DNA of 64,000 nucleotides from an uncultured Oscillospiraceae bacterium (GCA_900549055.1 URNB01000001.1:14852-78851); one strand, 5' to 3'; shown: positions 15,104-37,284, counted from the stretch's first letter. The notes: generated from the sequence alone by a model not told the origin. Translations and numbers: made by a program.

Positions 15104-18100
15104 TTATTTCTTTATGGATTTCTTTTTTCTGACGGCAATAATTATTATCACCGCCGCCAACACGCCGGCTGCAATTACGGCGCCTATTATAATCCATACA
15201 TAATTATTCGACGCGTCTTCCTGCGTATTTTTTGATTTGGCAGGCGTCTTTTTGCCGCCGTCAGGCTTCTTTACATTTTCCTCTGTCGGTTTTACCTCCT
15301 CCGATGTATTATCTTCATTGCCCGCGCTGTCGTTCATTGTATCGGCAATCTGATTAGTATTCTTATTGCCGTTCGATTTTTCAGGCAGCTTATCATCGGA
15401 AAGATTTTTAATACTGTGAATTGTATCCGAGGTTCTGACGATCATTACATCATCAAAGAATATACTTGTATTTCCGTCGGACACAAACGCAAGCCATGGC
15501 GTTCTTGCCGTAAACGAATATATGACCTCTGTCCATTCGTTTTGTTTAAGCGAGGATACCGACAGCATTTTTTCAACGCCGTTGTTCTTTTCCAATATAT
15601 CCGGCCATGTTTTGAATGCTAAGGATATGTTACCGGAAGCGCCTGCGGTATCGGTCATTATCCAGAATTTGAGCTTATATTCCGCACCTACGGTCAGCTC
15701 GTCGTCATAATTCACCAGGAATTCGTCGCTGACCGAGGCAAGACCCTTTCTGTGGATTGCCTTGCTGCCGCCGTGAACCTTATCTGCAACATATCCTGCT
15801 ACGCCCGGTCTGTAATATTCGTGGTCTTCGCCGAGGTCGTATTCGGTAGCGGGATAGTTTTCAAAATCCTGCACTACCGAGGTCAGTTCCCACTTAGCAT
15901 AAAGCGTCAACTTACCGGCGGGGAATATAGTCTCGGTGAATTTGCACTGCAGCTCGCTGTATACATACCAGCCTTCAAAGCGATAGCCCTCGCGCACAGG
16001 GGTAGGCAAAACAAGCTTTGCGCCTATAAGCCCCTCAATCGGAGGAACCGTAACACCCTCTGCGTTTGTCACAAAATCAATTCTTGTTTTTCTGGCTGTT
16101 GCCGTGGCGCTGCGTTTTATTCTCGGATAGAATATGCGCAGTATAGGCATTGTATCGTCAACCGTCATCCATACCTTATCATAGTCAAGCCCGGGCATAC
16201 CGCTTTTCGCATTTACACCGCACATATTGTCGGCGTTAACAAAGGTTACGCCGAGTCCAACGGCAACGCCGAAGGTATAAACATTTTCATATGTGTTTCC
16301 TGCGGCTATCAGATCTCCTCTGCCGTCCACTATTTGATCGAAATCGGCAGTGCAGGCATAGCAGTTTCTGATAATGGAATCAGGAGCGAAAGCATTGCCC
16401 AAAAGCGCACCGCAGCGTGAGCCGCCTATCAGCTTTCCTACAAAATAGCTGTCTTCGATTTTAATCGGAGAGGGCGTACCCGAAACCATACCACCCGCGA
16501 AATTGCCGCGCACGATTACGGAGGTATCGGCAAAGCATCCGCTTATGACCGGGTAATTTTCCTCTTTTACCTCATATTCCTCTCTCCAGTTCTTAACATA
16601 CGCCGCAAATGCCGCGCCGTATGCCTCGTTTTTAACGGTGGAAACGTCAATATAACTGTCAAGTATGCCGACATTTTTAATTGAAGCCTTTGTATCGATT
16701 CCGGGTATAAGTGCGCCGCGCACGTTATCAGCTTCGGTTCTGATATAAATACCGGATACAATGTGTCCCTGTCCGTCCAAATGACCCGCAAAGGCGTTGC
16801 TTATACCGAAGGTCACATACCAGTGATTCAGCTTTTTGCCGTCATACCAGTTTTCGCTTGAGGTATCATTAAGCTTTATGTCCTCTGTCAGTACATAATA
16901 TGCCGGAGTATCATTGTACACGGTATGCTCCGAAACCATTTTGTAAAGCTGTTCGCCTGTAGCAATTTGGTATGGGTCTTCTTCGGTACCTGTGCCTCCC
17001 GCATAGTCCTCCGCTTTAAGTCCGCTCCAGATCTGACCCGGAACACCGTCGGTTGAAGAATCGGACGATTTCTGATCCATATGCGGGTAGTCGTTTTCAA
17101 CCGTGTTCCAAATAGTATCCCATTTAAGTTCGGGCATAGCGTTCCTTGCGGATTCGCCTATTATCTGTTCCTCTTTTACAACATTGACCGCTATGTTCTG
17201 CGCGTCGCCGTGCCTTGCCTGCGACTGCGAAACGGTGGAATATCTTATTCCCGATGGCATACCGAAGGATTTGTCAATCGCAACGCAGCCTACGGTATAG
17301 CTGTCCGTAACATTCGCGGTACCCCACGAATCGCCGTAAAAACCGCCGGCATAGTTAGATTTATTTTCAAAGCTGCCCACAAAATAACAGCTCGTAACAT
17401 CCACAGAGCCTGCGCTTACCCCGCCTATCAGTCCGCCGACAGCCGCAGCCGCACCGAATATCGAGTCTCTTACGGAGCATTTGCTTATTCTTACGTTTGA
17501 GCCGGTTTGAATATATCCCGCGATACCGCCGAGATAGCAGTTACCTTCTCTCCTGCCGCTCAAATACGCTTTTCTTATGTTTACTCCCACAACGTTGCCT
17601 CTGCCCGCAAGCACGGGAATCAAGCCGCATTTTTCGGAAATATTATTACAATAAAGCCCGTATACCGTGTAGCCTTTACCGTTAAGTCTGCCCTTAAAGC
17701 CCGTGTTGGGCTCGGTTAAATTAATGCTGTACCATGAGTTCAGCTTTGCCGCCGTATACCAGTTTTCCGCCTTTACATCGTTAAGATAAATATCTGCCGC
17801 CAGCTCATAATAAGCACCGGGCTCGGGGTCTGTTGAAAGGCAGTGCTCCTTTACCATTTTATAAAGCTGCTCCGCGGTTTCGATTATATACGGATCGCCC
17901 TTTTCGCCGCTGCCGCTCTTATATTCCGCGGCGGTTTTGCCGCTCCAAACCTCGCCCTTTTTGCCGTCGTAATAATCGCCTACCGGCGCGTCCGAAACAT
18001 TTTTGCCCGCGGTGCTTCCCTTTATTATCGGGTAACCGCTTTTATTTATCTCCCAAACATCCCAACCGAGATTCGGCATGTTTACCTTTGCCGCGTCGCT

Positions 18101-20062
18101 CTGCATTGCGCTCTCGCCGCTGACTGCGGTGAGGTTAACGCCCTGCGAAATCCACCAGCTGTATGCCGAATACAGAGTTCCGTCCGAAATGGCGGAAGCG
18201 TCTTTAAGATAGGGTGCCAAATTACCGGTTATAAATGCAACCACGGAATATGAATTGACAATTCTGAGATAGGATGTTGCCAAAACATTCGAGGCTACTA
18301 TTCCGCCGCCCCAGCCGCTGCCTGCGGGATTTCCGTAATCATTGAATTTGGCAGCCGAGCCGCAGTATTCAACGGTTATCTTGGCATAGTGTCCGCAGCC
18401 GATAATTCCGCCGACATGGCAGTTTGCAAGATCACTGAAGTTAACGGTGTTATCCACCACGCATTTTGAAACCGTGATTACCGATGCCTTGTTTCCGGGT
18501 GCTAAATCTACGCAGCCCAAAATTCCGCCCATGTATACATCGACATTGTTATTGGGCGCGGCATATGCATACCGCACATTAACATTTGATATTACGGCAT
18601 TGCCGTTAGCTCTCGGAATAAGTCCGTATGCGTATTTTTCCTTGTAGGTTCTGTAGTACATACCGTAAACGGTGTGTCCCTGACCGTCAAAATGCCCCGC
18701 AAAGCCCTGATACATCCAGGTGGTGTCTCCGTGCGATGCCCATTCCTTAGGATTATTGTTAAGCCAGTTTTTATCCTTGATATTATTTAAGAATATATCC
18801 TTTGTTAAAACAAAGTATAAGTTTTCGGAATTTTCCTTTGTAAACGAGGTGTTTGAGGAAAAGCCGTAAAGCTGCTCCGCGCTGCTTATCTTATAAGGAT
18901 TTTCCTTTGTGCCGTCGCCCTCGAATTTTGTATCGGACGAGCCGTCCCATACCTCAAGGTCGCTGCCGCTGCCGCTCTCATAAGCGGTGCTTCCCTTAAT
19001 TGTGGGATAAGCGCCTTCATTTGCCTGCCAAACATCCCAGCCGAGCTTCGGCATATTGTTCTCTGCGCCCTTGCCCTGCATCGAAGCCTCGCTTGCAACC
19101 GGAGTAAGATTAACTCCGCCGTCGGTCGCCCACCAGCTTTGGGTGGAATACAGTGTGCCGTCGGAAATGTCCGCCGGCTTTATGCCGCCCATCCAGCCCG
19201 ATACAAAGGCAACAATCGAGTAGGAGTTGATTATTCTGACATATTCCGCTCCCCAGTGCCCCGGCGCACAGATTATACCGCCGCCCTTTCCGGCTGACGG
19301 ATTGCCGTAATCGCTGAATTTAGCTGCCGAGCCGCAGTAGCTTACAGTCACCTTTGATTCGCGAACAGGCCCTATTATGCCGCCCAAAAGGCTGCCCGAA
19401 ATCCTGCTGAAATCCACCGTGTTATCAACAACGCATTTGCTTATTTTAACATTTGCCTGATATCCCGGGGAATAATCTCCGTTGTTCTTCTGAACAAAAC
19501 CGACTATACCTCCCATATGAAACTCAACCGAATTGTTAGCCGCGGCAAACGAATGCCTAAGGTTAACATTAGTAATTTCGGCATTCCCCGTTACCATGGG
19601 TATAAGGCCGTATGTTCCGCCTGCGGTGTAGTTATCGTAATACATACCGTAAACGGTGTGTCCATGACCGTCGAAAAAACCGGAGAAGCCGAGTGAAGCG
19701 TCGTTTGCCGCGTCTGCTCCCATTTTCGCCCATTCTCTCGGCGAATTGTTCATCCAATCGGAGCTTGAAACATCGTTCAGATAAATATCGTTCGTAAGAA
19801 CATAGTATTTTTGCTCGGAATCCTTAACATTTACCCTTGCGGTAGCAAAGCCGTAAAGCTCCGCCGCGCTTGTTATTTTGTAAGGATTGTCTTTTGTGCC
19901 GGCGCCCTCAAATTCGGTATCGGACGAGCCGTCCCATACCTTTGTTTTTCCTGCGCCCGAAACCGCAATGCTTTCAATAAACAGGGACGAACAAAGCACG
20001 GCAATTACCGAAACTACCGCCGCAATTCTTGACAGCGTATCGGTTTTGAATTTAAACCTCAT
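15104..20062 (-). CDS. Giant (1652-aa) cell-surface protein with a signal peptide, four ~310-aa modules, a Listeria-Bacteroides (Flg_new) repeat, a CBM-like domain, a low-complexity stalk and a C-terminal TM anchor
   Basis: GAGGTGG RBS; signal peptide; each module has a (V/I)W(D/S)G..DPY.I.(S/T)AE(E/Q)LY(G/K) head plus GLUG-like Gly-rich beta-strand repeats (GGIVGFV, GGIIGPV, GGGIICAP); C-terminal TM plus KKKSIKK. Confidence 0.8.
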   Translation of the reverse strand: MRFKFKTDTLSRIAAVVSVIAVLCSSLFIESIAVSGAGKTKVWDGSSDTEFEGAGTKDNPYKITSAAELYGFATARVNVKDSEQKYYVLTNDIYLNDVSSSDWMNNSPREWAKMGADAANDASLGFSGFFDGHGHTVYGMYYDNYTAGGTYGLIPMVTGNAEITNVNLRHSFAAANNSVEFHMGGIVGFVQKNNGDYSPGYQANVKISKCVVDNTVDFSRISGSLLGGIIGPVRESKVTVSYCGSAAKFSDYGNPSAGKGGGIICAPGHWGAEYVRIINSYSIVAFVSGWMGGIKPADISDGTLYSTQSWWATDGGVNLTPVASEASMQGKGAENNMPKLGWDVWQANEGAYPTIKGSTAYESGSGSDLEVWDGSSDTKFEGDGTKENPYKISSAEQLYGFSSNTSFTKENSENLYFVLTKDIFLNNIKDKNWLNNNPKEWASHGDTTWMYQGFAGHFDGQGHTVYGMYYRTYKEKYAYGLIPRANGNAVISNVNVRYAYAAPNNNVDVYMGGILGCVDLAPGNKASVITVSKCVVDNTVNFSDLANCHVGGIIGCGHYAKITVEYCGSAAKFNDYGNPAGSGWGGGIVASNVLATSYLRIVNSYSVVAFITGNLAPYLKDASAISDGTLYSAYSWWISQGVNLTAVSGESAMQSDAAKVNMPNLGWDVWEINKSGYPIIKGSTAGKNVSDAPVGDYYDGKKGEVWSGKTAAEYKSGSGEKGDPYIIETAEQLYKMVKEHCLSTDPEPGAYYELAADIYLNDVKAENWYTAAKLNSWYSINLTEPNTGFKGRLNGKGYTVYGLYCNNISEKCGLIPVLAGRGNVVGVNIRKAYLSGRREGNCYLGGIAGYIQTGSNVRISKCSVRDSIFGAAAAVGGLIGGVSAGSVDVTSCYFVGSFENKSNYAGGFYGDSWGTANVTDSYTVGCVAIDKSFGMPSGIRYSTVSQSQARHGDAQNIAVNVVKEEQIIGESARNAMPELKWDTIWNTVENDYPHMDQKSSDSSTDGVPGQIWSGLKAEDYAGGTGTEEDPYQIATGEQLYKMVSEHTVYNDTPAYYVLTEDIKLNDTSSENWYDGKKLNHWYVTFGISNAFAGHLDGQGHIVSGIYIRTEADNVRGALIPGIDTKASIKNVGILDSYIDVSTVKNEAYGAAFAAYVKNWREEYEVKEENYPVISGCFADTSVIVRGNFAGGMVSGTPSPIKIEDSYFVGKLIGGSRCGALLGNAFAPDSIIRNCYACTADFDQIVDGRGDLIAAGNTYENVYTFGVAVGLGVTFVNADNMCGVNAKSGMPGLDYDKVWMTVDDTMPILRIFYPRIKRSATATARKTRIDFVTNAEGVTVPPIEGLIGAKLVLPTPVREGYRFEGWYVYSELQCKFTETIFPAGKLTLYAKWELTSVVQDFENYPATEYDLGEDHEYYRPGVAGYVADKVHGGSKAIHRKGLASVSDEFLVNYDDELTVGAEYKLKFWIMTDTAGASGNISLAFKTWPDILEKNNGVEKMLSVSSLKQNEWTEVIYSFTARTPWLAFVSDGNTSIFFDDVMIVRTSDTIHSIKNLSDDKLPEKSNGNKNTNQIADTMNDSAGNEDNTSEEVKPTEENVKKPDGGKKTPAKSKNTQEDASNNYVWIIIGAVIAAGVLAAVIIIIAVRKKKSIKK

Positions 20063-20102: not shown

Positions 20103-20951
20103 TTAATTTGCAAAGTATATTTTCGACCTGTCGTTTTTTTGGTACAGTCTTATGTAATCGATATCATAGTCAGCCTTTGTGAAATTACTGCCGACAGTAA
20201 CGTTCTTTGCCCACTCGCCGCCCGAGGTACTTGTATACCCGGGTGTAAAAATGTGATTGTTGAGTATCAGGCAATGCGGGTCGTGAAAGCCCTGCATACC
20301 GCCGCTGCCGCCTATATTTTCGGCAAGCTTATATGTACTGTAGCGCGTGCCGTCAACAAACATTGATATTTCATACGGCGTCCACAGCATACCGTAGATA
20401 TGCCAGCCGCCGTCGGATATATCGAATGTGCCGTTTTTTACGGACGAAGAACGGACGCCGTATTTCTTTATGTTCTCTTCCTCTTCCCACCATTTGTGAA
20501 GCTGCGAAGAGACCGAATTATTGCCGAATACCTCAAAAATATCTATTTCGGTAAAATAATCCGCCTCCGGCTTACAGCCGAGCTTTTCGGCAATTTCTGC
20601 GCCCTCGGGGTTTACATTGCTTTTCATCCAAAGCGACGGCCAAACCCCCTGTCCCACAGGCACCCGTGCCCTCATTTCAAGATAACCGTATTTGAAGGTC
20701 ATGCTTCTGCCGGTCGTAACCGATTTTGAGGTTTTATAGCCGCCGCCCGTTTTTGAGGAGCGCAGCCGCAGGCAGCCGCCGCCGTCTGCGCCCGAGTCCC
20801 GTATGACTGCCGCAACATCGGAGGTTGCGGCAGTCGTAAGATCCGAATAGCCGTACATATAGTCGGTAAACGCCCATTTGCTCCCGTCTATTTCGGTGCC
20901 GTTGAATTCATCCGAAAAAACGAGCTTATAGCCTTCGTCACGCGTTTTCAA
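20103..20951 (-). CDS. GH16 glycoside hydrolase domain protein with no signal peptide; TTG start overlaps the upstream stop
   Basis: GH16 catalytic motif EIDIFE and KYGYLEMRARVP; paralogous to 35547-37055; starts at a TTG embedded in a T8 tract (TTTTTTTTGA). Confidence 0.75.
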   Translation of the reverse strand: MKTRDEGYKLVFSDEFNGTEIDGSKWAFTDYMYGYSDLTTAATSDVAAVIRDSGADGGGCLRLRSSKTGGGYKTSKSVTTGRSMTFKYGYLEMRARVPVGQGVWPSLWMKSNVNPEGAEIAEKLGCKPEADYFTEIDIFEVFGNNSVSSQLHKWWEEEENIKKYGVRSSSVKNGTFDISDGGWHIYGMLWTPYEISMFVDGTRYSTYKLAENIGGSGGMQGFHDPHCLILNNHIFTPGYTSTSGGEWAKNVTVGSNFTKADYDIDYIRLYQKNDRSKIYFAN

Positions 20952-23077
20952 AAAAAAGCAACAGCCTTTTTTACTCTTATAAGGTCAAGAACATTGACCG
21001 CATTATCATTATTGACATCGGCAATCCTGTTCTCTGCCGATTCAGCGCCCAAAATAATCTTTTTGAGCATCGTCACATCGCCCGCGTCGGGTGCGTCGCT
21101 GTCCTCGGCGTTCACATCGTAATTGCGAAGACCTCTGTTCTTTAAGAGCTTTTCACCCGTGCCGTACCATGCGTCACTGTCAAATTTCAAATCGGAATAG
21201 CCCGACGCCTTTACCAAACCTTCCCATGAGTCGCGGTCGAATCCGATATAATATGCGTTCGAGAAGCTGTATGCTCCGGGAATTTTGCACTCCCAATTTG
21301 ACGACTGAAGATTGACTGCCGCCGTATGCCAGCCGTATGTATAGAAATCCTTAATGGTTATATTCGCGTATCCGCCCCATACATCCGCATATGCGCCGCC
21401 CTTGGTTGCGGTCCCGCCGAGCACGGCAGAGGAATACGAATCGCCGATAGTTATCTTTGCAAGCGCACACCCTATAATTCCCGCAGTGCGTGTTCCGGTA
21501 ACCTGAACGGTATCATCCGCAGAACACCCGGAAATCACAACCTCACCCGAGGAGATTCCCGCAGTGCCGTTTGTAGCTCCTACAAACGCGGCAGCCCAAA
21601 CACCGTTTATATACGATTTTCTGATATGCAGATCGGTTATCGAGGAATCGGCGCCGATATTTGCTATAAGACCGGCATATTTATTACCGCTCAAATTATC
21701 GTTTGCCGAATAAAGACCGTAAATTGTGTGACCGTTTCCGTCAATGTGTCCCTTGAAGGTAGCCTCGTTGCGCTCCCACGACCACCAGTTGTGTGCCGGG
21801 GCGGACATTCCCCAGCTCTTGTAAAGTGTGATATCGTTCAGATAAAGATCGGAAGTTAAAAGGTAATATTTACCTGTTTCACTTGTCTCAGCCATTTTTC
21901 TCAACTGCTCCGGAGTAGCTATGAGATACGGGTCGCCCGCTTCGCCTGTTCCGCCGTCATACGCTGCGGCGGCGGTTCCGTCCCATACCTCATACTCGGG
22001 CTTAATGAACGCAGTGCTGCCCTGTATAGTCGGGTAAGCGCCCTTATTTGCCTGCCATACATCCCAGCCGAGATTCGGCATGTTAACCTTTGCGGCATCG
22101 CCGAACATCGCGGCGGAGCCGTCCACCGGAGTCAGGTTAACGCCGCCCGAGGTTGCCCACCAGCTCTGTGTGGAATACAACGTGCCGTCGGAAATATCAG
22201 CGGGTTTTATGGCGTTAAGCCAACCGCAGGTGAAAGCAACAACAGAATAAGAATTTAATATCTTCACAGACTCCGCTGCCCAGTTTCCGGGCGCGCAGAT
22301 AATTCCGCCGCCGTTGCCCGCGGGATTGCCGTAGCTGTTGAATTTTGCTGCCGAACCGCAATACTGAACAGTAACCTTTGATTCACGCACGGGGCCTACT
22401 ATACCGCCTATAAGTCCGGTAAGATTACTTAAATCCACGGTTTCATCCACAACACATTTGGTGATTTTAACGTTCGCCTGATAACCGCTTGCGTAATTGT
22501 CATTGTTTCTATCGATAAACCCGACTATGCCGCCGAAATGAATATTTGTGCTGCCGTTTGACTCCGCATAGGCATAACGCAGATTGACATTGGTTATTTC
22601 GGCGTTACCAACCGCTTTCGGAATAAGTCCGTAAGAATAGTTGACAGTATAATTCTTATAGTACATACCGTAAACTGTATGACCCTGACCGTCAAAATGC
22701 CCGGCAAAGCCATGCGCCGCCCACTGATATTTATAGTTACTCGCCCATTCTCTTGGGTTGTTGCTCAACCAGTTGCCGGCAGTAACATCGTTAAGATATA
22801 TGTCTTTGGTTAAAACATAGTATTTATCCTTTGAATTTTCCAAAGTAAAATCAGTATTGGATGAAAAGCCGTAAAGCTCCTCTGCGGTTGTTATTCTGTA
22901 AGGATCCGCCTTTGTGCCCGAGCCCTCGTATTCGGTATCGGCAGATCCGTCCCATATTGCCGCTGCCGTGTTCGCCGCGGATACGGGATAAATAACAAAC
23001 ATTGAAATTAAAAGCGCCATAGAAAGGAAAATAGAAAATACTCGCCTGCCAGTAAATTTGCCGAAGTCAGATTTCAT
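20948..23077 (-). CDS. Secreted 709-aa paralogue of the giant surface protein (two WDG..DPY/GLUG modules) with a C-terminal degenerate dockerin-like repeat
   Basis: GGAAAGGTGA RBS; signal peptide; module 1 is ~75% identical to module 1 of 15104-20062; C-terminus ADVNNDNAVNVLDLIRVKKAVAFF is a single dockerin-like repeat. Confidence 0.75.
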   Translation of the reverse strand: MKSDFGKFTGRRVFSIFLSMALLISMFVIYPVSAANTAAAIWDGSADTEYEGSGTKADPYRITTAEELYGFSSNTDFTLENSKDKYYVLTKDIYLNDVTAGNWLSNNPREWASNYKYQWAAHGFAGHFDGQGHTVYGMYYKNYTVNYSYGLIPKAVGNAEITNVNLRYAYAESNGSTNIHFGGIVGFIDRNNDNYASGYQANVKITKCVVDETVDLSNLTGLIGGIVGPVRESKVTVQYCGSAAKFNSYGNPAGNGGGIICAPGNWAAESVKILNSYSVVAFTCGWLNAIKPADISDGTLYSTQSWWATSGGVNLTPVDGSAAMFGDAAKVNMPNLGWDVWQANKGAYPTIQGSTAFIKPEYEVWDGTAAAAYDGGTGEAGDPYLIATPEQLRKMAETSETGKYYLLTSDLYLNDITLYKSWGMSAPAHNWWSWERNEATFKGHIDGNGHTIYGLYSANDNLSGNKYAGLIANIGADSSITDLHIRKSYINGVWAAAFVGATNGTAGISSGEVVISGCSADDTVQVTGTRTAGIIGCALAKITIGDSYSSAVLGGTATKGGAYADVWGGYANITIKDFYTYGWHTAAVNLQSSNWECKIPGAYSFSNAYYIGFDRDSWEGLVKASGYSDLKFDSDAWYGTGEKLLKNRGLRNYDVNAEDSDAPDAGDVTMLKKIILGAESAENRIADVNNDNAVNVLDLIRVKKAVAFF

Positions 23078-23106: not shown

Positions 23107-24537
23107 TTATTTTGTTTGCTTGGCAACAAAATCGTTCAGGGTTTTAACATCATTGTTAACCGTGTTATTGACCGCAGAAATAGCGGTTTCAATTTGCGAC
23201 GGGTCGTTCTTCGCAATATCGCCCAAAACCTCGGTAGCGTTACCCGTAACGCCGCGCGTACCGTTTATAAGCGAAAGATTTTTCTTTTCGGTGGTAACGC
23301 CGCTTGTAATCTTGAAGAAGAAGGACTCGGCAGCGGAATTTATAAACGCCGATGAGGTATTGTAGTTATTGACATCGAGATAATACCTTAAGAACAGACC
23401 TGCGGCAACCGGGTTTTTAGAGCCCTTTACAATGCCCCAGCCGCGGAAGAGTCCGGTGGTTACCGACTTTTGGCTCTTGCTCCAATCCGGGAGATAGGTG
23501 AAGCCTATGTTATCGGCATTCATCTTTGACCAGTAGCCTGTCTTTTTAAGACCGTAAGCGTTTGTAAGCGCTATTCCCACCTTGCCGTTTATGAAATCGT
23601 CGCGCAGATTGTAATCGTTAAGTCCCTTTATAAGACCATCTTTAAGGCAGGTTGCAAGATAGCGCGAAACATCCTTTAATTTTGAGTCGATGCCGTTGGA
23701 GAATTTGCCGTTTTCCCATTTATAATAGGAAACGCCCGTGCAGCCGAGAACGGTCTCCCAATCAAGGTAGCCGCCGATGTAATCGGAGCCCAACGCCTTA
23801 ACATCCTGCATTGCCTTCTTCATGGTATCGAATGTCCAGTTGCCCGCCTTGTAATATTCCTCGGGAGTGGTTATGTTGTTTTCATTAAACAGCTTTTTGT
23901 TATAGAAAACGCAGTCAACCTCGTTCCAGATATTTCCTACCGTATTTACAAGATAGGTCTTTCCGTTTATAGTGGAAAGATTGAACATACCCTGATCCCA
24001 TATCGGATCGGTTTTATCTATCTGCGCGGTATCGATAGGCTGCAGGCAGCTGAGAGCCGCCGGGAAATCGTTATTGCAGAAATAAATATCGGGAGGATTG
24101 CCCGCGGCAATACGGCTTGCTATGCTCATTGAATAATTAAGCTGACCTACAAGATCAAGCTGAAATTTTATGCCGTATTTCTTTGTAAAATCCTCTACGA
24201 CCTTGGCGTCCTCATTCTTTTTCGGGTCTGCCCAGGTGGCGTACCTTACCGTAGTGCCCTTATACTTCTTTGCAAGCTCCGCAAAGTTATCGGGCATTTT
24301 TGTGTTGTTCTTTTTGCCGCCCGAGGTTGTTTGGGAGGATGAGGTTTTGCCGCTCTTGCTGTCGGTTTTTCCAGAGGAATCCCCCGAGGTCTGCCCACTT
24401 GTGCCCGACTGATATTCATACACGATTTCAACATCGTCGGACAAGGAGCCGTCGTCACTGCTGCTCTTTTTGCAGGCGGTAAACGATGCCGTCATTGCCA
24501 ATGCCAAAAGAAGACAGAAAATTCTTTGCTTTTTCAT
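23107..24537 (-). CDS. CUT1 ABC transporter substrate-binding lipoprotein (SBP family 1)
   Basis: Lipobox LALAMTASFTAC; Ser/Thr/Gly-rich linker; SBP_bac_1-like body. Confidence 0.8.
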   Translation of the reverse strand: MKKQRIFCLLLALAMTASFTACKKSSSDDGSLSDDVEIVYEYQSGTSGQTSGDSSGKTDSKSGKTSSSQTTSGGKKNNTKMPDNFAELAKKYKGTTVRYATWADPKKNEDAKVVEDFTKKYGIKFQLDLVGQLNYSMSIASRIAAGNPPDIYFCNNDFPAALSCLQPIDTAQIDKTDPIWDQGMFNLSTINGKTYLVNTVGNIWNEVDCVFYNKKLFNENNITTPEEYYKAGNWTFDTMKKAMQDVKALGSDYIGGYLDWETVLGCTGVSYYKWENGKFSNGIDSKLKDVSRYLATCLKDGLIKGLNDYNLRDDFINGKVGIALTNAYGLKKTGYWSKMNADNIGFTYLPDWSKSQKSVTTGLFRGWGIVKGSKNPVAAGLFLRYYLDVNNYNTSSAFINSAAESFFFKITSGVTTEKKNLSLINGTRGVTGNATEVLGDIAKNDPSQIETAISAVNNTVNNDVKTLNDFVAKQTK

Positions 24538-24606
24538 TTTTTTTAAATCCTTTCAGAAAAAATTTTTATAATTAAAATTTTCAGTGTCGCCTTCACCTCC
24601 GTATAA

Positions 24607-35546: not shown

Positions 35547-37055
35547 TTACCCTGCCAAATTTAACGCCCCGACTCCCGGCTTCTGATAAAGTCTTATATA
35601 ATCGACAAAATAATTAAAGGGAAGATCGCTGTTGTTCACACGGTTGCTTGCATTTGTCTCTCCTAAGTCCGGAGCATATATAAAGTTATTCAAAATAATA
35701 AGCAAAGGAGAATTAAAGCCGCCCATACCGCCGTTTTTATCGAAATCGTCGGTCATGTCAAAGGTCATGTAATCCTCGCCGTCAACCGACATTATCATTT
35801 TTTCGGGGGTCCACTCAAAGCCGTAGGTGTGGTATTCCTTCGATAAATTATCGGTATTTTTGAACACATAGTTTGTCGTTGTGGTTTTGTTATAGTGATT
35901 GCCGTTATACATTGTGTGCTTTCCGTTATGGAACCATTTATGTATGTTCGGTATTGCGGTGTCTGTGCTGCTGAAAATTTCAAAAACATCTATTTCAACA
36001 CCGTAATCGTGTTTAGTGCTTTCATCCTTCAGCGCGCCGCCGCTCACAAGCCAGAAGGACGGCCATGCCCCGACGCTGTACGGCACCATCGCCCGCATTT
36101 CAAGATAGCCGTATTTATAGCTCATGGTGTTCTGCGTGCATATTGATGAATTGGTGGCGTATTCCGCTGTCGGCAATGCGGGATTGTAATAGCGTATAGC
36201 CGTCATTTTGAGCAGACCGTTATTGACATTGACAACATTTGAATCCCTCATGAGCGGCATCATGCTTGTACCCGCCATCTTATTTTCAAAGCACCACTTA
36301 TTCATATTAAGGGCATTTCCGCCGAACTCATCGCCCCAGACATATTTGTAGTCGCTTTTAATCTGCGATTTGAAGCTTTTGCATTCACCGTTCAGCGTAT
36401 TAAGCTTTCCGCTTTCATAATTAAGGGATACGAACCACTCTGCGGCGGTTTCGGTCATCGCGGTGTGGCCGCCCTCTATATAAATTTTGTTATTTTTAAG
36501 GGATACGGCATATTTATTTTCCTTAAGCTCCGATTTGCGGCGGTTTGTATTGCCTATAAGTATTTCCTTCGCGCCGACAGCCGCACTGTCATCGGAAACG
36601 GTGAGCTTCTGCCCCGCCTTTTCCGAAAAATACGAGCGTATCTTCTCCGCCGCAGCTTTCATTTCGGCATTACCCTTCGGATATATAACGGTATAACCTG
36701 CAGGTCCGTTCCATTTTACGGCGCTTACGGTAATCTCGCTCTTTTCGTCCGCTTCGGAGCCTGACGAGGTGTTCTTTGTTGCGCGCGGGCGTTTTTCTCT
36801 TTCGGAGGTGCCGTCATCCTCTGTACTGCCGCTGTCGGAATTATTATCGTTGTCATAATAATAATTGTCATCCGAGCTGTCACTTGAAGAAGAATCGGTG
36901 CTTTCGTCGTTCTGCACAACGATTACCTTTTTAATGATCTTCTTCTTTTTCTTTTTTACTTCCTCACTGCTTCCGCAGCCGGCAACAAGCGCGGCGGCAA
37001 GCAGCAAAGAGCATACTGCCTTTATCAGTCGGTCAATTTTTTGGTATCGGAACAT
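35547..37055 (-). CDS. Lipoprotein-anchored GH16 glycoside hydrolase with a poly-Lys/acidic Ser-Asp-rich linker and a middle beta/alpha domain
   Basis: AGGGAG RBS 9 nt before ATG 37055; lipobox LLAAALVAGC; linker KKKKKKIIKK followed by Ser/Asp/Asn-rich tract; GH16 motif EIDVFE and KYGYLEMRAMVP. Confidence 0.8.
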   Translation of the reverse strand: MFRYQKIDRLIKAVCSLLLAAALVAGCGSSEEVKKKKKKIIKKVIVVQNDESTDSSSSDSSDDNYYYDNDNNSDSGSTEDDGTSEREKRPRATKNTSSGSEADEKSEITVSAVKWNGPAGYTVIYPKGNAEMKAAAEKIRSYFSEKAGQKLTVSDDSAAVGAKEILIGNTNRRKSELKENKYAVSLKNNKIYIEGGHTAMTETAAEWFVSLNYESGKLNTLNGECKSFKSQIKSDYKYVWGDEFGGNALNMNKWCFENKMAGTSMMPLMRDSNVVNVNNGLLKMTAIRYYNPALPTAEYATNSSICTQNTMSYKYGYLEMRAMVPYSVGAWPSFWLVSGGALKDESTKHDYGVEIDVFEIFSSTDTAIPNIHKWFHNGKHTMYNGNHYNKTTTTNYVFKNTDNLSKEYHTYGFEWTPEKMIMSVDGEDYMTFDMTDDFDKNGGMGGFNSPLLIILNNFIYAPDLGETNASNRVNNSDLPFNYFVDYIRLYQKPGVGALNLAG

Positions 37056-37284
37056 TACCGTCAACTCCCTGCTTTTTCGGATTTATGTTGTCATTCTGCC
37101 CAATTATTATAATCGATTGCCTTATTTTTTTAAATGCAATTTTTATTATAATTTGCACTTTTCTTCACTAATTTAACTTCCGAAAATTTTTCGGATTATA
37201 TTTTGGGGAAATATTTATTGATTTTTTTATTGAAATCTATTATAATTGAAGAATAAAATCAAGCCATTCCTGTGTTTTTTACCA

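Follow-up and report, generated by a model that had tools for sequence, protein, structure and literature searches.

In a 64,000-nucleotide stretch of DNA from an uncultured Oscillospiraceae bacterium (GCA_900549055.1 URNB01000001.1:14852-78851; this whole stretch is called the window below), a secreted dockerin protein of 709 residues ends in a run of eight T's, and a reading frame for a GH16 glycoside hydrolase begins within that run, one frame back and with neither a signal peptide nor a ribosome-binding site (RBS) of its own. How is such an enzyme made, and in which compartment would it act? Comparison of related loci indicates that the 709-residue gene and the GH16 open reading frame (ORF) are most likely one recoded gene, in which the T run mediates the dockerin-GH16 fusion by some form of -1 recoding; we place the probability of this at about 0.8. 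The features at the junction are as follows.

20948..23077, minus strand: 0-frame ORF of 709 aa, with a signal peptide, two ~330-aa repeats of an unassigned module and a C-terminal dockerin; ends ...LIRVKKAVAFF-stop
20960..21088, minus strand: complete type I dockerin domain (residues 664-706), followed by three residues and the 0-frame stop
20966..20972, minus strand: second in-phase heptamer A_AAA_AAG (gtA AAA AAG; the classical dnaX and insertion sequence (IS) motif), 8 nucleotides (nt) upstream of the T run
20957-20950, minus strand: homopolymer T8 on the coding strand (A8 on the plus strand)
20951..20957, minus strand: in-phase slippery heptamer T_TTT_TTT (gcT TTT TTT), the proposed -1 shift site; with 20950 it makes up T8
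20950-20948, minus strand: 0-frame stop TGA, adjoining the 3' end of the heptamer; TAA in strain L085
20949..20951, minus strand: TTG (Leu), the first -1-frame codon past the shift and a possible but non-conserved start; TTA in L085, L005 and L001, other codons elsewhere
20103..20951, minus strand: -1-frame GH16 ORF of 282 codons, one leaderless laminarinase-like catalytic domain (Pfam and PDB alignments)

Reading Frames at the Junction

Across the junction the minus strand reads ...CTT ATA AGA GTA AAA AAG GCT GTT GCT TTT TTT TGA AAA CGC GTG ACG.... The sequence bears out the arrangement given in a preliminary description of this DNA, in which the 709-residue ORF ends GCT TTT TTT TGA and the GH16 ORF runs from a TTG in the -1 frame: this TTG (20951-20949) precedes the 0-frame codon by one base. 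Ahead of the T run, a TGA at 20987-20985 leaves the GH16 frame only 11 open codons. Read through in -1, the conceptual product has 991 residues and the junction ...KKAVAFF-LKTRDEGYK.... Only two A or T runs of at least eight occur in the 64 kb, the junction run being one of them, and in-phase T_TTT_TTY heptamers number 6 in 19,149 codons; such an arrangement is rarer than chance. The other run, an A8 on the minus strand (24537-24544), consists of seven A's and the A of the ATG of a 476-residue protein, and lies in the spacer between the Shine-Dalgarno (SD) sequence (AAAGGA) and the start of that protein. The counterpart at locus L001 carries a solute-binding protein annotation; Pfam gave no hit for the window copy.

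A -1 shift at the upstream A_AAA_AAG would likewise enter the open GH16 frame (...VKK-GCCFFLKTRDEG...). This heptamer was rejected as a real shift site: it is present in the window and in L085 and is not conserved in other lineages, and in L007 a -1-frame stop lies between its position and the T run.

The 282-residue ORF matches Glyco_hydro_16 (Pfam PF00722, E 5e-14). The catalytic EIDIFE motif is intact (20532-20549), and E135, D137 and E140 are invariant among homologues. The nearest PDB structures are laminarinases and endo-beta-1,3-glucanases, by which the enzyme is predicted to be beta-1,3-glucanase-like. No signal peptide is present, and there is no room for one, because the solved catalytic domains align from ORF residue 5-10. 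The sole SD-like element is an AAAGG 13 nt upstream, unlike the neighboring operon genes, which carry GGAGG, GAGGTG or AAGGTGAT at 6-10 nt from their starts; the lack of both signals had been noted in the preliminary description. So had the export of the paralogous GH16 protein (35547-37064, minus strand) as a lipoprotein, and a lipobox, LVAGC, is indeed found there, its ATG being the fourth codon of the listed ORF, at 37055. No promoter or terminator was found at the junction.

The 709-residue protein opens with a signal peptide (MKSDFGKFTGRRVFSIFLSMALLISMFVIYPVSAAN) and closes with the dockerin (Dockerin_1, PF00404, residues 664-706; E 3.5e-6, 27.6 bits against a gathering cutoff of 22.9). 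Both D.N.D-type Ca-binding segments are visible in the alignments, and the domain matches the type I dockerin profile. The N-terminal repeats gave no GLUG hit in Pfam at E<=10, no NCBIfam family and no PDB relative, and the earlier label of "GLUG" is dropped; the sole record for the repeat-protein homologues, those in L171, is a faint Peptidase_M26_N hit.

Conservation of the Slippery Site

Homologues were collected by a protein search with a junction-spanning query, and the DNA of each locus was then read across the junction in three frames. At 45-62% identity, the closest GH16 homologues have each been called as a leaderless protein in its own right (~250-300 residues), and more distant ones (about 30% identity, 660-680 residues) carry dockerin and GH16 in one protein. 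Ten T-run junctions, representing about eight lineages, were compared; with L003 and L004, which are further contigs of the L002 lineage, there are 12 T-run contigs in all.

Window: GCT TTT TTT TGA
L085: GCT TTT TTT TAA; same species, 98.7% identical over 6846 nt, no gap
L005: GTT TTT TTT TAA; 92% DNA identity, Ruminococcaceae metagenome-assembled genome UMGS974
L001: AGT TTT TTT TAA
L163: GGT TTT TTT ATG TGA
L165: AAT TTT TTT GGA TAA
L166: CTT TTT TTC TAA
L002 (also L003, L004): AGT TTT TTC TCC TGA
L007: GGT TTT TTC GCC TGA
L087: GGT TTT TTC GCT TAA

All ten loci have T_TTT_TTY in X_XXY_YYZ phase and a 0-frame stop 0-1 codon further on (immediately 3' of the heptamer in five), and in all of them GH16 can be read in -1 across the whole run. 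Mean column identity in the junction alignment is 67%, and no block longer than two columns is invariant apart from the T6 core. The codon before Phe-Phe is GCT, GTT, AGT, GGT, AAT or CTT, encoding six amino acids and always ending in T, so that the seventh base of the heptamer is kept across loci. Seven of the ten loci have 7-9 T's (four of them at least eight), and L002, L007 and L087 have T6 followed by C; the last heptamer base, Z, is C in four loci, three of which are those with only six T's. GH16 identity among these lineages falls to 53%, with saturation at synonymous sites between the deeper ones; in a rough neighbor-joining tree of GH16 domains the T-run loci form a monophyletic clade. 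The junction has three of the hallmarks of a programmed -1 frameshift site, namely a heptamer in phase, an open and selected -1 ORF, and conservation beyond neutral expectation.

Within the window's clade, GH16 lacks both a signal peptide and a good RBS in every orthologue. Neither the 12 T-run contigs nor the 16 members of clusters P0001/P0005 include an in-frame allele, and none occurs among those upstream-protein fragments of the window's species that are listed (15 of 19). For this species, the matches listed from a collection of 5.8 billion proteins are only C-terminal fragments ending ...AVAFF, plus one variant. That variant (P0124, from ENA contigs) has A5 for A6 in GTAAAAAAGG, corresponding to 20967-20972 of the window; the dockerin ORF there ends in the third frame (...VKRLLLFFKNA-stop), and the GH16 frame is not restored.

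Start Codons, Selection, and the Linker

Within 100 nt around the junction, the window and L085 differ at one base. This G to A change at 20949 turns TGA into TAA in frame 0 and TTG into TTA in frame -1, and would therefore be neutral under a frameshift, being stop to stop and Leu to Leu. It also abolishes the sole start codon of the separate GH16 ORF: in L085 and L005, no ATG, GTG or TTG, nor any ATT, ATC, ATA or CTG, occurs in the GH16 frame ahead of the conserved YKLVFSDEFNG strand. The T-run loci L007 and L087 and the A-run locus L171 similarly lack ATG, GTG and TTG ahead of the conserved N-terminal strand. Simple TTG/TGA coupling, one of the alternatives raised in the preliminary description, is disfavored by a strain 98.7% identical to the window in which TTG is TTA. 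Gene callers have truncated several homologues inside the GH16 fold (P0006, P0007, P0008 and P0014).

The ratio of nonsynonymous to synonymous substitution rates (dN/dS) for GH16 is 0.069 for the window and L085, 0.076 for the window and L005, 0.097 for L007 and L087, and 0.17 for L171 and L170b; for the 709-residue protein it is 0.11-0.12 against L085 and L005. For GH16 the values indicate purifying selection, also in those pairs that lack a start codon. The sequence from the run to the fold is likewise kept as protein in the -1 frame (LISGDSG, LLSGDPG, YVSGDTG, WISSDN, RLSSD/N and LK[TA]RDEG), and its changes fall at third positions of that frame (GAT/GAC, AGT/AGC, CTG/TTA), even where an ATG occurs further downstream.

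In-Frame Fusions and A-Run Lineages

In L008, L088, L089, L014 and L099, a signal peptide, homologous repeats, a dockerin, a linker of 6-20 residues and GH16 form a single ORF. When these in-frame fusions were aligned with the conceptual 991-residue protein, single high-scoring segment pairs ran across the junction (for example, residues 667-982 at 41% and 324-989 at 31%). In the GH16 tree, L008, L088 and L089 lie just outside the recoded clades, with L014 and L099 much further out. The fusion of about 990 residues proposed earlier, by a -1 slip or by insertion of one U, is thus supported comparatively, by the conserved heptamer, the missing starts, selection and the in-frame homologues; the pattern named in the preliminary description as speaking against it, orthologues with a consistently separate GH16 under its own RBS or signal peptide, is not what the loci show. 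Close orthologues are split in -1, without a signal peptide or good RBS of their own, and distant homologues are fused.

Other lineages carry A runs at the same boundary.

L164: CTT AAA AAA AAA TAC TGA; A9, -1, no start before the LVW strand
L171 and L170b: TTA AAA AAA AAA ATT (CAA) TAA; A11, -1; the only TTG in L170b is at the LVW strand
P0009-P0011 subclade: A9-A11 run, followed directly by ATG

In the P0011 species (L168, L169 and L172-L181), the run lies ~60 nt before the GH16 ATG and is A11 in 10 contigs and A10 in two (L175, at 30x coverage, and L181); the related loci L167 and L182 have A10 and A9. The frame relation in this subclade is -1 for A11 and +1 for A10 and A9. The runs occupy three different positions within a few residues after the last helix of the dockerin, which suggests repeated evolution of slippery runs at one domain boundary. 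At least three kinds of slippery site are found there: U_UUU_UUY at ...FF, A9 or A11 at the dockerin's LKKK, and A9-A11 at QKKK.

A standalone leaderless GH16 follows the recoded copy in the A-run lineages (L164, 1608-2444; L170, 2046-2981; L171, 4382-5317). From sequence, these are GH16 paralogues of the cytoplasm that coexist with the dockerin-linked copy. Those in L170 and L171 (P0013) have a strong GGAGG RBS and an ATG, and L090 also has a standalone leaderless GH16 with a good RBS.

Proposed Mechanism

Most ribosomes would read GCU UUU UUU and then UGA, releasing the 709-residue secreted dockerin protein. A minority would move one base back on the in-phase U_UUU_UUU, either by tandem re-pairing of two tRNA-Phe or by a slip of the P-site tRNA-Phe with the stop in the A site; with the stop directly 3' of the heptamer, as in the window, P-site slippage could occur during slow termination. 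The shifted ribosomes would read UUG-AAA-ACG... and make a protein of 991 residues comprising the signal peptide, the repeats, the dockerin, a 7-residue linker and GH16, so that a catalytic domain otherwise lacking a signal peptide would be exported as part of the fusion. RNA polymerase slippage that added one U at T8 would yield the identical protein and probably contributes. Re-initiation at the TTG is a possible additional route in the window strain.

From these comparisons we infer that shifting actually occurs, how efficient it may be, and that the ribosome is its conserved actor. The ribosome is favored as the conserved component because three loci keep only T6 and C and four of the ten have C at Z. 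Heptamers of the type H_HH.U_UU.Y are among the most efficient -1 motifs in Escherichia coli, where the tetramer U_UU.C outranks U_UU.U (PMC4066793). That a ribosomal -1 frameshift is the principal route nevertheless stands at about even odds, and several observations weigh against it. When the downstream 90 nt of 15 junctions were folded and compared with shuffled sequences, z ranged from -1.6 to +1.2 and no hairpin was significant or common to the junctions; the junction has no Rfam match at E<=1; and no consistent SD-like sequence lies upstream, AAGG-like elements varying among the T-run loci. With no downstream structure, Rfam match or consistent SD-like element, the efficiency of a ribosomal shift may be well below 1-2%. 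In the A-run/ATG subclade (P0009-P0011), where the frame relation varies with run length, a -1 ribosomal shift does not account for the variation, and independent initiation or polymerase slippage must be at work. Finally, the window's TTG overlaps the stop (TTGA), the classical arrangement of translational coupling, and the standalone enzymes with good RBSs make a cytoplasmic GH16 "not absurd".

On the proposed mechanism, most of the dockerin protein would be non-catalytic, and the GH16 fusion is probably its minor isoform. For a group of gut and rumen Clostridia, the data lead us, tentatively and with rather less confidence than the shift itself, to the idea that the dockerin/GH16 boundary has repeatedly been turned from an in-frame linker into a homopolymeric recoding site. 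The catalytic isoform of a cohesin-bound surface protein would then be made in a fixed, low proportion to the non-catalytic one, and where the run is followed by a start codon the enzyme might be divided between cytoplasmic and exported pools. On this reading, frameshifting would have a new regulatory use in the machinery of polysaccharide degradation.

Alternative Explanations

The strongest competitor to the ribosomal shift is transcriptional slippage as the main mechanism, in which RNA polymerase would realign on the dA8:rU8 hybrid and give some U9 (or U6) transcripts, normal translation of which yields the fusion. We regard this as possible, though clearly the less likely of the two. The 7-9 T's of most T-run loci and the A9-A11 runs at the same boundary elsewhere are consistent with it, as is the lack of a ribosomal stimulator, and only slippage, through insertions and deletions, serves both the -1 (A11) and the +1 (A10, A9) relations of the P0009-P0011 subclade. 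Runs of nine A or T slip in bacteria (PMC5009743). In a member of the Clostridia, C. thermocellum, the A9 of IS1447 slips at ~16% each way, and seven A's suffice (PMC6211511). The IS1447 run follows a stem-loop, and the run in the window likewise ends a weak A6:U8 hairpin (20950-20973, minus strand, -7.1 kcal/mol), in which the A run of the Lys codons (LKK, dockerin helix) pairs with the U run of the Phe codons and the 3' arm is the slippery site. This stem can form in eight of the ten T-run loci (-2 to -7 kcal/mol) but L007 and L087 lack it; against shuffled sequences it does not reach significance (z >= -1.5; -1.4 in the window) and may reflect the simple complementarity of Lys (AAA) and Phe (UUU) codons. 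Slippage is harder to reconcile with the three T-run loci, in two lineages (L002; L007 and L087), that have only T6 and C, below the seven of IS1447, while their GH16 is selected, and with the C at Z in four of ten loci, which shortens the run and which slippage should disfavor.

If dockerin and GH16 were instead two separate genes, the enzyme would arise by termination-reinitiation at TTGA and act in the cytoplasm on imported oligosaccharides, the T run being incidental. Besides the TTGA overlap, the separate annotation of close homologues (~280 residues), the leaderless GH16s with true RBSs in related genomes, the ABC sugar importer encoded next door and the ATG directly after the A run in the P0009-P0011 subclade could all be read in this way. 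We consider the explanation improbable. GH16 is under selection although TTG is TTA in L085 and L005 with no alternative start, and L007, L087 and L171 also lack a canonical one; there is no SD at a functional distance; start positions vary where they are present, and the stretch upstream of them is kept as protein in the GH16 frame; and the gene calls P0006, P0007, P0008 and P0014 lose the conserved N-terminal strand.

Still less probable is a phase-variable contingency locus, in which slipped-strand mispairing at T8 would toggle between a fused state (ON, T9 or T6) and a split one (OFF, T8). Homopolymer length does vary between samples of the P0011 species (A11 in 10 contigs, A10 in two), and an A5-for-A6 variant occurs upstream of the T run in the window's own species (P0124), but the variants seen never restore the frame. 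This possibility, raised in the preliminary description, finds no in-frame allele in the T-run contigs, listed fragments or protein clusters, small as that sampling is. Moreover, the window and L085 both have T8, and L002, L003 and L004 all have T6C, which is a poor phase-variation tract; about eight lineages would need to have fixed the OFF state with GH16 still under selection. The absence of an in-frame allele from the T-run clade also disfavors sequencing error, a pseudogene and simple TTG/TGA coupling.

An artefact or decay, whether a homopolymer sequencing or assembly error splitting one gene or a recent frameshift pseudogene, is the least probable reading, even though homopolymers are error-prone and the in-frame homologues show that a single gene is viable, since SPAdes, MEGAHIT and Logan contigs from different samples, including an independent same-species assembly, give the same T8 with no indel in 6.8 kb, the same frame relation recurs with T6C, T7, T8 and T9 in other species, dN/dS lies at 0.07-0.17, and the lineages sharing the arrangement have diverged to saturation at synonymous sites.

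Neighboring Genes and Paralogues

In the loci checked for neighbors (L001, L002, L167 and L168), ABC permeases, a solute-binding protein, a large dockerin protein, GH16 and a very large Flg_new-repeat protein are found in synteny. Next to the GH16 ORF in the window, a protein of 1652 residues (15104-20062, minus strand) contains several copies of the ~330-residue module of the 709-residue protein (VWDGSSDTEFEG.GTK.NPY...), together with a Listeria-Bacteroides repeat and a C-terminal membrane anchor; the module has no assignment in Pfam, NCBIfam or PDB. An in-phase A_AAA_AAG lies seven codons ahead of the stop of this protein (15128). The GH16 lipoprotein has KKKKKK just past its lipobox, where the coding sequence is an A-rich run containing an in-phase A_AAA_AAG (36957), and a weak GH20b-like N-terminal region.

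Comparison with Known Recoding Systems

By analogy, the closest functional counterpart of the dockerin-GH16 junction would be the alpha-L-fucosidase gene fucA1 of Saccharolobus (Sulfolobus) solfataricus, which is expressed by -1 programmed frameshifting (PMC8037382, PMC8211752). There, too, a glycoside hydrolase is encoded in 0 and -1 ORFs and the full-length enzyme is made only by recoding. The frames of fucA1 join at an in-phase homopolymeric heptamer, which is A-rich. In contrast to the window, fucA1 is archaeal and its shift lies inside the catalytic polypeptide, so that the 0-frame product is a fragment; the window's shift would fall at a domain boundary, at a U-rich site, and its 0-frame product is a complete secreted dockerin protein.

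In E. coli dnaX, the shift truncates the protein and is driven by an upstream SD-like element and a downstream stem-loop, with an efficiency of about 50%, whereas the shift in the window would add a 282-residue domain and no stimulator was found. The likeness lies in a chromosomal gene with an in-phase X_XXY_YYZ heptamer (A_AAA_AAG) and two products, tau and gamma (PMC5009743). Phage lambda G/gpGT, mentioned in the same review (PMC5009743), resembles the window in having a minor C-terminally extended product beside a major short one. It differs in being a phage morphogenesis gene with another shift motif, and its extension is a binding domain and not an enzyme. In arrangements of the G/gpGT type, the slippery site and the frame relation are conserved even where the sequence is not.

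Homopolymers join frames at the RNA level in IS1447 (A9), Shigella mxiE and Thermus dnaX (A9) (PMC6211511, PMC5009743). The first is an IS transposase, the second a regulator and the third a replication gene, and the T6 of three T-run loci is below the shown minimum; unlike IS1447, the window junction has no significant preceding stem-loop. In Buchnera and Blochmannia, genes interrupted at poly(A) runs remain functional through slippage in some transcripts (PMC5009743). That is tolerated decay in reduced, AT-rich genomes, whereas the present case concerns a free-living gut anaerobe of 47% GC and one domain boundary, and persists across lineages saturated at synonymous sites.

To our knowledge, programmed -1 frameshifting or transcriptional slippage gives rise to an extended product in few non-mobile genes of bacterial chromosomes. 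Full-text literature searches that paired frameshifting with dockerins, cellulosomes or GH16 turned up the IS1447 paper alone and no such case for dockerin or cellulosome-type proteins or for bacterial glycoside hydrolases, and neither the GeneTack survey (PMC3711429) nor the 2016 recoding review of Atkins et al. (PMC5009743) contains a dockerin or glucanase frameshift cluster. The kind of recoding is known; its recurrence at one domain boundary is possibly a new feature.

If the proposed recoding is correct, current annotation of these gut Clostridia would systematically mis-describe a secreted GH16 as a leaderless cytoplasmic enzyme, or truncate or omit it. For a component of a surface complex, a slippery sequence would fix the stoichiometry between the catalytic form and the non-catalytic one, and the natural variants (T6C to T9, A9-A11 and in-frame fusions) would offer material for testing ribosomal against polymerase slippage in Clostridia.

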